Assembly: GCA_017937305.1 (NCBI GenBank)
Contig: JAGBDV010000001.1
Location: 66,237-130,236 of the forward strand
Direction: 5' to 3'
DNA length: 64,000 bases
Source: Bacilli bacterium
GTDB lineage: Bacteria; Bacillota_I; Bacilli_A; ML615J-28; CAG-313
Positions 16,847 through 62,546 of this stretch are shown in pieces. A model generated the notes under the pieces. That model did not search any database, was not told the DNA's origin, and saw only the letters and a list, made by a program, of their open reading frames with translations. Each line of letters opens with the position of its first letter. Position 1 is the stretch's first letter. Both the position numbers and the translations under genes were made by a program.

Positions 16847-16872
16847 GTTATATATGTAATGAGGTGATTAAG

Positions 16873-17139
16873 ATGAAAATAAAAGAAGGTTTTATGTTAA
16901 GAAGTGTTGCAGATAACTATGTAGTAGTTCCTGTTGGTAAAGCATCTTTAGAGTTTAAAGGTTTAATTAATTTAAACCATGTTGGTGCTTTTATTTGGAA
17001 ATGTTTAGAAAATGATACTACTACTTTAGAAGTTATTAATAAAGTAATTAATGAATATGGAATTGATGAAGAACTTGCAACACGTGATGTAAATAATTTT
17101 ATTAATAAACTTATTGAGGCAAATCTACTAAATGACTGA
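16873..17139 (+). CDS. PqqD-family RiPP recognition element (stand-alone RRE)
   Basis: 88 aa, MKIKEGFMLRSVA...LN.VGAFIW..L...EYGIDEE.A..DV..F...L; ATG at 16873 behind GAGGTG. Confidence 0.85.
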   Translation: MKIKEGFMLRSVADNYVVVPVGKASLEFKGLINLNHVGAFIWKCLENDTTTLEVINKVINEYGIDEELATRDVNNFINKLIEANLLND

Positions 17140-17545
17140 TTATGAACAAGCAATAGAAAAGTATGGTTTTTTTATTGCAACACCTATTGGTACTTCTATG
17201 CTACCACTTCTTAGAGAACGCTTAGATACTGTTAAATTAGTAGCTCCTACTAATATTAAAAAACATGATGTTGTTCTTTATATGCGTAATGATAAAACTT
17301 TAGTATTACACCGCATAATAAGAGTACATAAAGATACTTTTACAATGTGTGGGGATAATCAATGTATCTTAGAAAAACACATCAAAAGAAGCCAAATAAT
17401 CGCCGTTATGGAAGGTTTTTATAGGGAAGAAGAATATTTCCCATGTACTGATAAAAACTATCAAAAATACGTAAGAAAAATTATCTTTAAGCGTCCATTT
17501 AAATATCTTAAACACCTAATTAAAAAAATATTAAAAAGAAAGTAA
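17132..17545 (+). CDS. Soluble S24/S26-family peptidase (Ser-His type)
   Basis: GTSMLP catalytic Ser motif, LHRII, GDN; no TM anchor; overlaps the RRE stop. Confidence 0.8.
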   Translation: MTDYEQAIEKYGFFIATPIGTSMLPLLRERLDTVKLVAPTNIKKHDVVLYMRNDKTLVLHRIIRVHKDTFTMCGDNQCILEKHIKRSQIIAVMEGFYREEEYFPCTDKNYQKYVRKIIFKRPFKYLKHLIKKILKRK

Positions 17546-17555
17546 AAATTAAATT

Positions 17556-18254
17556 ATGCCAAAATATAATATTGCAGGAATAATAGTAGAGATGAATCCA
17601 ATGTTTAATCGAACTATTTCTCAAGCAAAACCTTATTTAACCACTTCTTTAAATAATCCAGATATATCGATTGAGCTAACAATGGAAAAACTAGAAGAAA
17701 TAAAAAAACGTTATAATCACTTAAACTTAGAAGAAATAGAATATATTTTCTTAGGTCAATTATTCTATCGTCATATTCTTAAATATAACGGAATATTACT
17801 TCATTCTTCTTGTGTAGTAAAAGATAATCAAGCATATCTATTTAGTGCTCCATCAGGAACTGGAAAATCAACGCATACAAATCTTTGGTTAGAAGAATTT
17901 AAAGATGCCTATATCTTAAATGATGATAAACCTGCAATCATATTTAAAGATAATACTTTATATGCAGCAGGAACACCATTTTCTGGTAAACATGATATTT
18001 CTAAAAACTTACTTGTTCCTATTAAAGGTATTTGTTTTATTGAAAGATCTTTAAATAACTGGATTAAAGAAATTTCTAGTAAACAAGCTATTTTTGAAAT
18101 ACTTAATCAAACAGAAAGAATCCCATATGAAAACGATATGACTTTAATTTTAAGTCATATTGAAAATATCGTAAAAAATACTAAAATATATAAAATGGGG
18201 TGTAATATTTCTATTGATGCGGTATATACATCTTTTAATGAAATGAGTAAATAA
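17556..18254 (+). CDS. HPr-kinase-like P-loop kinase
   Basis: LLHSSCV, Walker A APSGTGKST, LNDD, GTPFSG. Confidence 0.75.
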   Translation: MPKYNIAGIIVEMNPMFNRTISQAKPYLTTSLNNPDISIELTMEKLEEIKKRYNHLNLEEIEYIFLGQLFYRHILKYNGILLHSSCVVKDNQAYLFSAPSGTGKSTHTNLWLEEFKDAYILNDDKPAIIFKDNTLYAAGTPFSGKHDISKNLLVPIKGICFIERSLNNWIKEISSKQAIFEILNQTERIPYENDMTLILSHIENIVKNTKIYKMGCNISIDAVYTSFNEMSK

Positions 18255-58005: not shown

Positions 58006-58260
58006 CTTTTCACCTTTATATATATATTTAATACTGTTATTTACCTTCATATACATTATACTATAAAATAATAAAAAAAGATAGCATAAGAAATAAAATA
58101 TAAATGTTTATTATATACTTAATGAAACTTTCTTTTAAATGATGAAAAACTAATACTCTATTCTTCTATTAAATTATATATATTTTTTATAATATTAATA
58201 AGATAAAGTAAATTAAAATATAAAAAAAGATTTTTAGGTTTCCCTAAAAATCTAATTTTT

Positions 58261-60669
58261 TTACTTATTAGGATCTTCAGTTAATACTGGTTCCCAAACA
58301 CTTACTCCTAAGAAACTACTAGAAGTTGGTGTACTACTATAATAGTTATTTGAAGCATTAATTACACTTGTAGATTCATTCTTAATATGATAAGTAGCTT
58401 TTGAATTTAAAATTGAGTTATTATGAAGTTCTGCAGTAAATTTTGTTGCTCCGCTAGCCATTCTTAATAGCATATAAGAATTATCAACAACGTTGTTTTC
58501 CATTAAAATACTTGATCCTGTGTGTCCGGATGTTACGCCAGCAATATATAATGCTCCATGACTACCAGCTGTTTGTCCACAATTAGTGAAAATATTATTT
58601 GAAACATTAATAGAAACATTAGAACAGTTAGCAAACCATAAAAGATATTGTCCGTAATCTTTAAATGTATTTCCAGTGAATGTAATATTACCTTGAAGAC
58701 CATAGTTACCATAACTTGAAGAAATAATTTTGATTGCATCAGTATATAAAGTTTTGTCTGAACTTCCCAAGAAAACAGAATCTTTAACTGTAAAATTATT
58801 TATACCATAACCATAGAATAAAGTAGGGCGTTTTGGTGAATTTTCCACTTTAAAATTAGAAATTATTAAATTGTTAACTTCATTTCCTTTACTGCCTAAA
58901 CATTTAAATAAACCATTTGAATTTGAACTAAATAATGATTGTTTAGCAATGATAGTATATGATAATGTACAATTTGAAATTCCAGCAGAAATCAAAACAG
59001 ACTCAGTTGTGCCTAATAATTGATCTGAAAGATAAAAACCATTAAATGTTACATTGCTTGCACTTACAGTTATTTTCTTAATAATAGACTCATTTTGTCT
59101 ACTGCCAGTATTTGGATCAACATCCGCATTAGCTCCTAATAAAGTAATGCCAGAAACAGAAATATTTACATTTTCGTTAAACTCATCTCCAAATGAATAA
59201 ATTACATCATTTTCATTAGCTACAGCTAAAGCTGAATTAATACTTGTGAATGCATTGACACCAGCAGTATATTCAACACCATTTACTATAAATTTACCAT
59301 TTTTAAAATCTTGACAAACAACAATATTAGGATTATATTTTTCTAATATTGTTTTATCAGTTGAAGTTATTTCAACTACAACCGGAGCATCCATAATCCA
59401 TAAAGCATATAAATCTTTATTTCCATGAGAATTAGTTGGAATAGAAGTAATTGCTGTTCCTTCACAATCCACAGTATCAAACCAACCACCAAATTTACCA
59501 TTAACTATTGTAAGATTATCAGCAGTTGGTAATACAATTTCACTTGATTCATAATTATAAGAAGTTACAAGTGTAGAATTGCAAGCTCCAGCACCTAAAT
59601 GATAATTTATAGAATAATTTGTTGGTGTAAATTTAGCAAATAAAGAACGAGATAAACCTTGCTTAGTAATAGATTCACCACTTAAACTTTCGTTTTCAAA
59701 CCATCCTTTAAAATCATAAAATTCTTTAGTAGCAATAGGAAGTATTTCTCCACCGCCATAGTGACTCTTATTGCCAAATAAACTTAAATCTTCAAACATA
59801 CGAACTTTTACGTTACAAGTAGATGTATTAGGTACATCAAAATCAGCATATAAGTTTAATGCTTTTTCTCCCATTGTAACTATTTTCTTAATTGTTGCAT
59901 GAGCAGTCTTATCTGTACATGTTGAAGAACTTTCAAATGCACCAATAACATAATCATAGTCAGTACCAGAATACTTATCACCCGAAGTTGCTACTGCAAC
60001 AACTTTGTATAAATCTAATTCTTCAATATATTTGAAATATATTTTATACCAATATAGACCAGTAGCACCTGAAGGGTTAGAAGAAGGACTCATACCAATA
60101 TAATAACCAGTTCCACTTCCTGTGTTATATCTAGTAACAGCATATTGATAATCTGCTACTAATTCTCCACCATTTAAATTAAATGTAGTTTCACTTGCGT
60201 CATATACAGCTTTTACAAAGTCACCTTCAGTACCTTTTTCGTAAGCTTCAACTGCAACTTCTGATAAGTTTCTTGTAACTACATTTTCAGAATATGTATA
60301 AACTTCTCCTGTTTTTACATAAGCTCTTACAGTAATGTCTTGCACAGCAGCACTCTTAGGGAAGTTAATCATGGTAGCATGGTAAGTTCCATCTTCTTTT
60401 AACCCTTCAACTTCTTGTGCAACAACATTTGCAGTGTCTTTATTTAATTGTTCAGCAGTAAGTTCTCCTTGTGCAAATAAGAAACCATATACTTGGCCTT
60501 CTGCAGCATTTTCAACTTTTGCTTCCCATCTTAAACCGTTATTTCCATCAGTTCTAATTTGTACGCCATCAGTTAAAGCAACACTTGTTTCGCCTTCAGC
60601 TTTTACTAACACTACACTTAGTGATAGAACCATAAAAACAACTAATAAACTTAAAAATATTTTTTTCAT
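58261..60669 (-). CDS. Secreted protein: shared N-terminal beta domain, InlB-B/Listeria-Bacteroides-like repeats, C-terminal beta-helix (pectin-lyase-like)
   Basis: Signal peptide VKA|E; GVQIR..GLRW..YGF..NFPKS..RAYV; FNLNGG / LP...F.GWF repeats; Asn/Ser beta-helix periodicity. Confidence 0.78.
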   Translation of the reverse strand: MKKIFLSLLVVFMVLSLSVVLVKAEGETSVALTDGVQIRTDGNNGLRWEAKVENAAEGQVYGFLFAQGELTAEQLNKDTANVVAQEVEGLKEDGTYHATMINFPKSAAVQDITVRAYVKTGEVYTYSENVVTRNLSEVAVEAYEKGTEGDFVKAVYDASETTFNLNGGELVADYQYAVTRYNTGSGTGYYIGMSPSSNPSGATGLYWYKIYFKYIEELDLYKVVAVATSGDKYSGTDYDYVIGAFESSSTCTDKTAHATIKKIVTMGEKALNLYADFDVPNTSTCNVKVRMFEDLSLFGNKSHYGGGEILPIATKEFYDFKGWFENESLSGESITKQGLSRSLFAKFTPTNYSINYHLGAGACNSTLVTSYNYESSEIVLPTADNLTIVNGKFGGWFDTVDCEGTAITSIPTNSHGNKDLYALWIMDAPVVVEITSTDKTILEKYNPNIVVCQDFKNGKFIVNGVEYTAGVNAFTSINSALAVANENDVIYSFGDEFNENVNISVSGITLLGANADVDPNTGSRQNESIIKKITVSASNVTFNGFYLSDQLLGTTESVLISAGISNCTLSYTIIAKQSLFSSNSNGLFKCLGSKGNEVNNLIISNFKVENSPKRPTLFYGYGINNFTVKDSVFLGSSDKTLYTDAIKIISSSYGNYGLQGNITFTGNTFKDYGQYLLWFANCSNVSINVSNNIFTNCGQTAGSHGALYIAGVTSGHTGSSILMENNVVDNSYMLLRMASGATKFTAELHNNSILNSKATYHIKNESTSVINASNNYYSSTPTSSSFLGVSVWEPVLTEDPNK

Positions 60670-60679
60670 AAGTTACCTC

Positions 60680-60811
60680 CTATTCGAAGAAACCTGAATC
60701 ATCATTGCTATCTTTCCAAGGATAATCAAAGATTGTACTTGAATTAGCAGTTTCAATTTCAGTTTCGTATTCAATAATTTCGATAGAAGGAGTTTCATAA
60801 TTTTTATTCAT
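60680..60811 (-). CDS. Unannotated 43-aa RiPP-precursor-like peptide MNKNYETPSIEIIEYETEIETANSSTIFDYPWKDSNDDSGFFE
   Basis: Manual translation; GGAG RBS; TAG stop overlaps the next gene's GGAGG RBS; paralog of 21656-21781. Confidence 0.8.
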   Translation of the reverse strand: MNKNYETPSIEIIEYETEIETANSSTIFDYPWKDSNDDSGFFE

Positions 60812-60989
60812 TTTCTTTCTCTCCATATCTTAAAATTATAGTAAGTATTAATAGGTAAACAATTTTGTCGCCTAATTTATTTAGGTTCTGCAAAAAAGTT
60901 TATCTTTTTTTAAGCTTTTTTAATTACTTCTTACTTCATTTTGCCAGTAATAAAAAAGTTTACCTTTTTAAGACATATACTACATATGT

Positions 60990-61040: not shown

Positions 61041-61070
61041 AAAATTAGGGTTCTACTTATGTAGAACCCT
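61041..61070 (-). terminator. Intrinsic terminator
   Basis: AGGGTTCTAC-ATAA-GTAGAACCCT plus U-rich tail. Confidence 0.85.
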
Positions 61071-61076
61071 TAAATT

Positions 61077-62546
61077 TTATTTATTTTGTTCTTTATACCA
61101 ATCTGGTAAATATTGTTCATAACCTCTAAATTTGAAGATCTTTGTTTCATGTAGGCGAAGATTTTCTTCTCCAGTTACTTTGTTTTCAAAGTCTTGTAAT
61201 TCTTCATTCCATACTGCAACACCATTAGTAAGTGTTAAATCATAGTAACCTTTCATAGTTGGAGAGCCTTGGAATGTAAAGTTATCTTCACCATATGTAG
61301 TGAATTTCATTGTTCCGTTTACTGCATTCCAGTATACATTTAAGTTTTCTGAAATTCTAGGTGCTTTATAGAATCTATCAATAGCATTTGCAGCTGGGTG
61401 TCCTGATGCTCCATCAAGATTATAAGTATTGTTTTGAGTAGGTTTTCCAGGTTTTGCTTGATATTGATTAGCACGTGCAGCAGAAATTGCAATTCCATAT
61501 GGATTTAAAGTGTCAAGTAAATCTTGAGAGTTAGATCCATGTGAGCCATGGTGAGCTGCTTTATATAATGTTACTTCTGGTAAATCTTCATTTTTAAGTA
61601 AAGATGCTTCTGAAGCTGTTGTTAAGTCACCAGCTGTAAAGAATTTAAAGTCTTTATAATAGAAGATTACTGCAAGTGATTCACCGTTTCCTGCTGATGA
61701 TTCGTTTTGTGTAATATATTGACCAGTATTTAATACTTCAAAATAGAATTCTTCTGTTAAGTAATATGTATCAGATGCTCCATTTAAGAAGTTTACTGAA
61801 TCATATGCTGAATGATATTGCATTCCAAGTGGAATATATTTATTTCTAGTTTTAAGTACATTACCAGAACCTGATCCGCCGTAGTCTACCATTAGTGAAA
61901 TGTTTTCTACATTTTCTAATGCTTTAATTAAACCATCAATATGGTCACCATCACTATGAGAAACCATTAAACAATCTAAGATACCATCAGTACAATGCTC
62001 AGTTACAACTTGATTTACAAATTGTCCATCGTATTCATAGCCTGAGTCAATTAAGATTTCAACATTACCTTTTTTGATAAATAATGAATCTGCATATATA
62101 TGTTGCATTTCAATAAAGTAAATTTCTAAAGGTTCATCTTCACCTTCATTACCAATATAAATTGGATCTTCTGGAGAAATACCAGAACCAACACCAAGTT
62201 GTTCTACTTTATTTGAAGAATCTACAAAGATACTATCAGTAATATATCCTTTACCATCTACATAAGCACTTACAACTACGTTACCGTTTTTAAGTACTGT
62301 TACGTTTCCTTGATTATCAATGTTTAATACTTCTGGATTTGAACTTACCCATAGGATATCTTCAGTTACTTCCTTAGTAGTTTTAGCTTCAAGTTGGAAG
62401 ATATCTCCAACACGAACGTCTAATTCGTTTACTGCAACGTTATCTTTTAGAATTTCTAATGAAATCATTCCTTCATCTGTTAAAGAAGCACAACCAGTTA
62501 AAGCTACTGCTAATAATAAAATAATTAAACAAATAAATTTTTTCAT
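61077..62546 (-). CDS. Lipoprotein: Ig-like (Big_2) domain plus ComEC/Rec2-like metallo-beta-lactamase domain
   Basis: Lipobox LTGC; ILIDSG, SHSDGDHIDG, FFTAGDL, KAAHHGS. Confidence 0.8.
   Translation of the reverse strand: MKKFICLIILLLAVALTGCASLTDEGMISLEILKDNVAVNELDVRVGDIFQLEAKTTKEVTEDILWVSSNPEVLNIDNQGNVTVLKNGNVVVSAYVDGKGYITDSIFVDSSNKVEQLGVGSGISPEDPIYIGNEGEDEPLEIYFIEMQHIYADSLFIKKGNVEILIDSGYEYDGQFVNQVVTEHCTDGILDCLMVSHSDGDHIDGLIKALENVENISLMVDYGGSGSGNVLKTRNKYIPLGMQYHSAYDSVNFLNGASDTYYLTEEFYFEVLNTGQYITQNESSAGNGESLAVIFYYKDFKFFTAGDLTTASEASLLKNEDLPEVTLYKAAHHGSHGSNSQDLLDTLNPYGIAISAARANQYQAKPGKPTQNNTYNLDGASGHPAANAIDRFYKAPRISENLNVYWNAVNGTMKFTTYGEDNFTFQGSPTMKGYYDLTLTNGVAVWNEELQDFENKVTGEENLRLHETKIFKFRGYEQYLPDWYKEQNK

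Follow-up and report, generated by a model that had tools for sequence, protein, structure and literature searches.

A putative LPP-like RiPP precursor, translationally coupled to a large secreted protein and predicted to be processed in trans

The closest described counterpart of the locus reported here is the linear polyphosphorylated peptide (LPP) pathway, encoded by lppA-K-B-S-D-N of Paenibacillus alginolyticus DSM5050 (Popov et al., Nat Commun 2026, PMC13381572). In this pathway a SipW-like peptidase, to which a recognition protein (RRE) hands the YxxP leader, cleaves after T-1 (PMC13381572), and an HprK-like kinase polyphosphorylates core Ser3, whereby both cleavage and polyphosphorylation are RRE-dependent (PMC13381572). 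D70 of the RRE protein LppB hydrogen-bonds the leader Tyr, and the Trp-specific RRE of paeninodin has a Gln at this position (PMC13381572). The LPP paper makes no mention of surface proteins (PMC13381572). Two other systems with related components are the paeninodin-type phosphorylated lasso peptides of Bacillota and SynChlorMet (SCM).

The DNA analysed here is a stretch of 64,000 nucleotides, hereafter called the window, from a genome assembly of 1.43 Mb (27.7% GC, 72% complete), which was scanned as a whole. The original prediction, made from the letters of the window, had reported an ORF for a small RiPP precursor near one end, and upon re-reading both the coordinates and the sequence proved to be an exact match. 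The gene, named P2, occupies positions 60680-60811 (-), comprises 43 codons followed by a TAG stop codon (60680-60682, -), and encodes MNKNYETPSIEIIEYETEIETANSSTIFDYPWKDSNDDSGFFE (translation of the window). The features of the P2 locus, and of a second gene with the same leader, are as follows:

21656-21781, minus strand: peptide 1 (P1), same leader and different core, downstream of a 507-aa protein gene and upstream of a 60-aa lipoprotein gene
58228-58253, minus strand: terminator-like hairpin just past the 802-aa gene
58261-60669, minus strand: 802-aa secreted partner, with signal peptide, N-terminal head domain, InlB B-repeats and, by eye, C-terminal beta-helix-like repeats
60175-60597, minus strand: predicted beta-sandwich head domain, residues 25-165 of the 802-aa protein (HMM; AF2 of a homologue)
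60676-60682, minus strand: TAGGAGG, the P2 stop codon fused with the RBS of the 802-aa gene (sequence read)
60680-60811, minus strand: P2 precursor gene, with a leader of about residues 1-21, YETPSIEI as the YxxPxI recognition motif, and the predicted core ANSSTIFDYPWKDSNDDSGFFE
60819-60824, minus strand: P2 RBS GGAGAG, 7 nt ahead of the ATG
60834-60839, minus strand: candidate TATAAT -10 box of P2 (sequence read)
61047-61070, minus strand: terminator-like hairpin at the end of the upstream 489-aa gene, marking the start of the P2 transcription unit

The end of P2 reads TTC GAA TAG GAGG, and the ATG of the 802-aa gene lies 10 nt past the stop. This overlap of stop codon and RBS had been noticed originally and taken as a sign of translational coupling. 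It was found again in 19/19 homologous peptide-protein pairs from other assemblies, in every case as a TAG inside GGAGG, with 8-15 nt between the TAG and the next ATG, and such strict conservation supports the proposed coupling. Independent gene callers predicted a 41-44-aa gene, located 10-14 nt upstream of the 802-aa homologue, on every public contig examined. Among 22 P2-type genes pN/pS was below 1, both in the leader (0.46) and in the core (0.52), and by this measure the amino-acid sequence of P2 is under purifying selection. Judged from sequence, P2 is a real gene. A 48-aa version, starting from an in-frame ATG at 60826, five codons upstream, was judged unlikely; the 43-codon reading is preferred, since this ATG overlaps the GGAGAG RBS and, in the orthologous locus L088, does not keep the reading frame. 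The stretch TTTTAAGATATGGAGA upstream of P2 is conserved in homologues. The TATAAT box was absent from the promoter-scan output because of a poor -35, and is therefore listed as a candidate only. The pair formed by P2 and the 802-aa gene is flanked by the two hairpins and so has the appearance of a two-gene operon. Directly upstream of it lies the gene for a 489-aa predicted lipoprotein (LTGC lipobox; 61077-62546, -), the C-terminal half of which is metallo-beta-lactamase fold-like by eye (HxDxDH), and a homologue of which carries a precomputed Pfam Big_2 match.

The second gene, P1, lies 39,030 bp from P2. The two products are identical at M1, K3, Y5, E6, P8, I10, E11, I12 and E18, which confirms the earlier claim of a common leader, MNKxYExPxIEIxE[FY], in two peptides 39 kb apart. 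A six-frame scan of the whole genome, as had been proposed at the time, returned, besides P1 and P2, a third peptide with the leader motif, on contig C18, and one decayed copy, but nothing further, which makes three intact copies. The third peptide, P3 (MCKYYETPSIEIVNYESEILTAEASVVIEFPWADGETDFFE), is encoded directly upstream of the gene for a 1632-aa secreted protein. The decayed copy, MKMKESF-stop-MPTIEIINFSTAITTYNYVLE-stop, contains an in-frame TAA, is located outside the window (contig C11:14995-15054, +), and is related to the type C peptides of the Erysipelotrichaceae MAG SIG222 (hereafter G031). The operon encoding the 507-aa protein, P1 and the lipoprotein is preceded by a purine riboswitch aptamer (Rfam RF00167, 53.7 bits; 23409-23505, -). 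No Rfam element was found ahead of the P2 operon, suggesting that the two operons are under different regulation. The 60-aa lipoprotein encoded after P1 (21469-21651, -) ends in GWLPWV, and a leader-type peptide ending in GWLPWL occupies the syntenic place in G031 (L061, G031:C8:262-396) and in a second relative, G033 (L074, G033:C307). Of note, G033 also encodes a signal-peptide protein with the C-terminus DGLPWL. On these sequences, the GWLPW[LV] tail is delivered either behind a lipoprotein signal or behind a YxxP leader, and the presence of the same tail in a lipoprotein of this genome and in a leader-type peptide of its relatives suggests that such tails act outside the cell.

The RiPP interpretation originally rested on a conserved leader combined with a variable core, so that a leader no more conserved than the core would have spoken against it. 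Among 48 distinct peptides, an anchored 11-residue leader block showed 55% mean pairwise identity versus 28% for the rest, and was the more conserved part in 95% of the pairs, figures that are biased since this set was collected via the leader. A fairer test is provided by the ten closest relatives of P2, since these were found via the partner protein or whole-peptide profiles. Here, the invariant columns amounted to 13/15 for residues 1-15, 3/6 for residues 16-21, 3/11 for residues 22-32, 1/9 for the acidic linker and 2/3 for the FFE tail. In both comparisons the leader was thus more conserved than the core, and the RiPP pattern is supported. The accompanying claim that the cores differ held in part: they are variable, but they are not free to change, as P2-type relatives keep one Ser (Ser25, invariant in the ten closest), a [FY]PW motif (Pro31, Trp32) and a C-terminal FF[EA]. 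Variation is found mainly ahead of the Ser and in the acidic linker. Being conserved and located directly after a Thr-containing junction, Ser25 is the natural candidate for phosphorylation. There are two candidate cleavage sites. Cleavage after T21 (IET|ANSS) would leave Ser at +3 and +4, which fits the Ser +3 of LPP, and cleavage after T17 (YET|) would fit the 'FET' of LPP.

The size of the peptide family was estimated with a profile search of 1.84 billion representative proteins (E <= 1e-3), which returned at least 5,657 clusters at 50% identity. The consensus of the family reads MKKxYxxPxIEIVxFxxEDIITTSG; the core that comes after it is short and mostly acidic, and 74% of the sampled members have an aromatic residue within their last six positions. 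In the sources that name them, family members are called 'hypothetical proteins'. Searches of P1 and P2 against Pfam and NCBIfam, and of ten typical family members against NCBIfam, gave no match, nor did a PDB sequence search with P2, and the leader motif string was not found in any paper as a peptide motif.

Genes for a possible processing machinery are located 42 kb from P2, in the same window:

16864-17139, plus strand: discrete RRE of the PqqD family, predicted binder of the P2 leader (Pfam PqqD 9.5e-16, above cut-off)
17132-17545, plus strand: 137-aa soluble S26/SipW-like peptidase, predicted leader peptidase, with Ser22, His60 and Asp75 in the motifs GTSMLP, LHRI and GDN
17556-18254, plus strand: 232-aa P-loop protein, ScmC/HprK-related, predicted Ser kinase, with the motifs SAPSGTGKST and NDDKP

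The RRE matched the NCBIfam family lasso_PqqD_Bac (3.6e-10) and, in the PDB, the sequences of 5v1u, 9x90_B (PbaB1, 0.006) and 9x8z_B (LppB, 0.029), which places it, among proteins of known structure, closest in sequence to the lasso B1 proteins TbiB1 and PbaB1, together with LppB. Its motif ATRDVNNF has an Asp four residues ahead of the conserved Phe, and this Asp aligns with D70 of LppB and Q79 of PbaB1, based on a position numbering that was verified on eight PbaB1 residues named in PMC13381572. Among 181 sampled family members, the first leader residue of the YxxP motif is Tyr in 176, Phe in 5 and Trp in 0 cases, and therefore the Asp at the LppB D70 position fits a Tyr-type leader. The peptidase matched TIGR02228 with 2.9e-6 and 27 bits, versus a curated cut-off of 52. 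Its profile also matched SpsB (4e-4), SEC11A (1e-3) and SEC11C, and S22, H60 and D75 were invariant in 12 homologues. Homologues of the kinase-like protein matched ScmC (8/9), HprK_rel_A (6/9) and HprK_rel_B (2/9), all below the curated cut-offs, and one of them, encoded on the metagenome contig L109, carries a precomputed Pfam PF27840 (ScmC) match. Comparing the kinase profile with the PDB by sequence returned no HprK structure, only P-loop matches to guanylate kinase.

The trio shares with LPP a discrete PqqD-type RRE in which the Tyr-fixing position is an Asp. Its other two members are candidates, on matches below cut-off, for the soluble leader protease related to archaeal-type Ser/His/Asp signal peptidases and for the HprK-related P-loop kinase of LPP. 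The two systems also have in common that there is no macrolactam cyclase, and that a Tyr-type YxxPx[V/I] leader is followed by a Thr and a nearby Ser. However, the leader in our family, MKKxYxxPxIEI[IV]xFxxEDIITTS, differs from the LPP consensus YxxPxVLxHQxIxFETxxS: only YxxPx[IV] and the later Thr-x-x-Ser are in common, the middle being off by 2-3 residues in spacing. Cores are short here (about 20 aa) and acidic, with aromatic tails. In contrast to LPP, the enzyme set consists of three genes, and neither the NTP-transferase LppN nor the MsbA-like exporter LppD has a counterpart beside the trio; no exporter or NTP-transferase gene was found in this 72%-complete genome. Of the 11 genomes of the genus, 6 have NTP_transf_5, which in G031 and in a further relative, G039, is not located beside the trio. 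Related enzyme clusters of the same taxonomic order, in other genera, include NTP_transf_5 and ABC transporter genes. Finally, LPP precursors are clustered within capsule loci, whereas here they are scattered, with 3-15 copies per genome, each coupled to a large secreted-protein gene.

Paeninodin-type systems resemble the locus in their discrete B1/RRE protein, HprK-like kinase and [Y/W]xxP leader, and the closest RRE matches are indeed lasso B1 proteins. They differ in that the locus has no cyclase C and no B2 protease, that its leader is Tyr-type and not Trp-type, and that the paeninodin kinase targets the C-terminal Ser of the lasso. Lasso cyclase and B2 protease were absent from 11/11 genomes of the genus, one of which is 97% complete and encodes 15 precursors, and the weak PF00733 matches in the genus were confined to PP-loop ORFs of ~250 aa. 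SCM is represented by ScmC (TIGR04249), the best family match of the kinase-like protein (best 4.8e-12 among homologues), and, more weakly, by ScmD (TIGR04248), matched by the RRE with 1e-6; all SCM matches are below the curated cut-offs and, in contrast to SCM, there are no radical-SAM partners beside the trio. Taken together, an LPP-like pathway, rather than a generic RiPP pathway, is supported by these comparisons.

The original prediction had suggested, as an inference, that dispersed precursors are served by one enzyme set. There is one peptidase gene per genome, versus 3 precursors in this genome, 15 in G031, 8 in G033 and 5 in G039. When 106 genomes of the order were searched with a leader-only profile, 25 were positive, comprising 22/22 genomes with a strong peptidase match and 3/84 without, the latter three being 84-88% complete. 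The corresponding Fisher p value of 7e-20, counted irrespective of phylogeny, is an overstatement, since genomes that are related do not count as independent samples. In other genera the precursor is found inside the enzyme cluster, with the order peptidase-lipoprotein-peptide-surface protein (L037, L042, L047) or NTP_transf_5-RRE-peptidase-peptide (L039). On L109, an unrelated metagenome contig of 24.7% GC, the genes for ScmC, PqqD, peptidase, NTP_transf_5, surface protein, peptide and a small lipoprotein follow each other in one run, and the surface protein (581 aa, InlB-repeat) resembles the 507-aa protein of the window. Comparative evidence, namely the single trio per genome, the co-occurrence of leader and peptidase, and the clustered precursors elsewhere, lends good support to the suggestion of a shared enzyme set. 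Two other arrangements were observed. In the clusters of family f2 (L037, L041-L043, L047) a 236-249-aa lipoprotein gene lies between the peptidase and peptide genes, and one of these lipoproteins weakly matches the head-domain HMM (6e-5). Tandem Cys-rich peptides with a similar leader, e.g. MTKKYEKPTIQIIKFQTEAFCTSVSFECTSTPMLCYNQMENLI, are encoded away from large secreted-protein genes (L010, L012, L025; G084:C1, G083:C159), and may represent a different RiPP class using a similar RRE motif.

The partner of P2, the 802-aa protein, matched Pfam Flg_new (3.8e-8) and has homologues named 'InlB B-repeat-containing protein'; no C-terminal anchor was seen in it. Its head domain of about 135 residues, with the motif DGVQIRTDGNNGLRW, is the first domain past the signal peptide in P2-type partners. 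An AF2 model of a homologue of this domain reached pLDDT values of 75-93, and Foldseek comparison with the PDB gave generic Ig/Fn3/CBM-like matches only (best E about 1e-3). The domain is also present in the 1632-aa partner of P3 and, distantly, at the C-terminus of the 507-aa partner of P1. BLASTP similarity between the 802-aa and 1632-aa proteins is confined to residues 1-155, which suggests that peptide, signal peptide and head form a module ahead of unrelated passenger regions. Between the 802-aa and 507-aa proteins BLASTP similarity is marginal (E 0.018), and the domain relationship is visible by HMM only, with E-values from 3e-10 to 7e-5 in a small database for P1-type partners and 3e-7 for the 507-aa protein of the window. 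Exactly three head-domain proteins are encoded in this genome, and these are exactly the three beside peptide genes.

Based on these data, our preferred reading, to which we assign a probability of about 0.72, is that P2 is the precursor in an LPP-like RiPP pathway acting in trans, and that its mature peptide most likely acts outside the cell together with the head domain. This agrees with the earlier RiPP reading and refines it to an LPP-like, trans-acting pathway with scattered precursors coupled to surface proteins. P2 would be transcribed from its own promoter region and translationally coupled to the 802-aa InlB-repeat protein, and the TAG/GGAGG coupling implies that peptide and protein are made together. 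The subsequent steps, i.e. binding, cleavage site, phosphorylation, export and head-domain interaction of the P2 product, are what we infer from the comparisons above. The leader motif Y5-x-x-P8-x-I10-E-I would be bound as a beta-strand by the single PqqD-type RRE (16864-17139), which would hand the peptide to the Ser/His/Asp protease (17132-17545) for a cut most likely after Thr21, alternatively after Thr17. The HprK/ScmC-like kinase (17556-18254) would then most likely phosphorylate Ser25, possibly Ser24, just ahead of a hydrophobic block. The predicted product is an acidic linear peptide of roughly 22 residues that keeps the [FY]PW motif and ends in the FFE tail, and it could serve, for example, as ligand, tether or assembly factor of the beta-sandwich head domain. 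That the mature peptide works with this domain outside the cell is suggested by the finding that the peptide gene always abuts the domain-encoding end of the partner gene.

It is conceivable, though in our view unlikely, that P2 is a genuine LPP-like precursor with a diffusible product, such as a signal, metal binder or antimicrobial, that is functionally unconnected to its neighbour, the adjacency then reflecting a co-duplicated promoter-plus-RBS cassette. About 42 of the 48 peptide genes lie within -47 to +48 nt of a gene for a large signal-peptide protein, or in tandem with such a peptide, and this adjacency extends over two families of the order and unrelated metagenome contigs, which argues against a merely diffusible product, as does the position of the gene: P2-type peptide genes lie upstream of partners with an N-terminal domain, and P1-type genes downstream of partners with a C-terminal domain. 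Likewise, the TAG/GGAGG coupling is strictly kept, and the core subtype follows the partner type. With P3 in this genome and the copies in relatives, the expectation that further copies should stand beside surface genes was borne out. Other aspects are easier to reconcile with a diffusible product. Not every head-domain protein has its own peptide, those with one amounting to 6/9 in G031 and 4/7 in G039 (~60%), and the partners are functionally diverse: apart from InlB-repeat proteins, the secreted partners of other peptide subtypes include giant BspA-type LRR/DUF6273 proteins, an endonuclease I, and one protein that has both N- and C-terminal flagellin domains. Two further arrangements were noted within the family. 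In G031, MKKEFETPTIEIINFDENINLGPNDEWYDSNVDMGGWI is present in at least six near-identical copies (L070-L073, L075, L077) that are without a Thr-x-Ser junction, and most of them overlap by 10 nt the start of a gene for a giant BspA-type LRR/DUF6273 protein. On a higher-GC metagenome contig (L107:2375-10150), a family peptide is encoded downstream of an 83-aa ORF that is head-domain-end-like by eye, and ahead of a gene whose product, of >1700 aa, matches the N- and C-terminal flagellin families of Pfam.

Docking of peptide and head domain was examined with AlphaFold2 single-chain fusions, for which genes that naturally lie in frame were joined by reading through the stop codon. In the fusion from G031, which has the upstream-type order of P2 (peptide, 6 residues, signal peptide, head), the domain was modelled with pLDDT 75-93, and the peptide was disordered (pLDDT 35-45) and did not dock. 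The L109 fusion, of downstream type (C-terminal domain, 9 residues, peptide), likewise showed no docking, with pLDDT 70-84 for the domain and 22-27 for the peptide. That neither fusion docked the peptide is in line with a diffusible product, as is the acidic nature of both partners (net charge -13 for the head domain and -4 for the core). The disordered peptides in the two models lower our belief in a simple binding of the unmodified core, yet fusions of this kind are weak tests, consisting of a single chain with shallow alignments and an unmodified peptide that still has leader and signal peptide attached. A possible mimicry of a partner-domain strand by the core, seen in a MAFFT alignment of SSTIFDYPW on ATMINFPK, was rejected as a chance likeness, since shuffled sequences equalled the score in 14-80% of trials (z <= 1.2).

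P2 might also be an unmodified small protein or a regulatory upstream ORF that opens or loads the RBS of the 802-aa gene, with an incidental likeness to RRE motifs. The P2 stop codon inside the downstream RBS would suit such a role, and members of the peptide family are RiPPs by prediction from sequence alone. We nevertheless regard this as improbable, since selection acts on the amino acids and keeps YxxPxIEI nearly invariant, since regulation of this type would make no sense for P1-type members, which lie downstream of their partner, and since the presence of the peptide tracks the peptidase gene over 106 genomes and the peptide is encoded inside enzyme clusters elsewhere. A lasso precursor, to which the YxxPxL-type leader, the Thr at -2 (TA| spacing), an N/S...D7 core suited to a 7-residue macrolactam ring, and the lasso B1 proteins as best NCBIfam and PDB matches of the RRE would point, is very improbable and was rejected, because neither an Asn-synthetase-like cyclase nor a transglutaminase-like B2 protease is present in the 11 genomes of the genus, and because relatives vary both at the first core residue (N/E/A) and at the acidic position.

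Returning to the preferred reading of P2 as an LPP-like precursor acting with its partner, the locus would represent a stripped-down LPP machinery serving precursors that are scattered over the genome and tied, gene by gene, to large secreted proteins. We found no description of such a peptide/secreted-protein pairing in the literature, and it hints at the purpose of a RiPP class that was described in 2026 (LPP). If the pairing is functional, the combination of peptide and head domain offers a direct experimental route to peptide function, and it may show how wall-poor gut Bacilli display surface proteins without known anchors. A more speculative extension, which we put forward as a long shot, is that peptide and head domain make up a surface-protein sorting or anchoring system that has so far gone unrecognised in low-GC gut Bacilli. 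In such a system, an LPP-type phosphopeptide would be exported and attached to the envelope, perhaps via its phosphoserine, and would serve the co-translated partner's head domain as receptor or tether. The lipoprotein-borne acidic-aromatic tail at the P1 locus would then be an alternative presentation of the tail. If true, this would provide both a function for the LPP class and an explanation for more than 5,600 unannotated peptide clusters.
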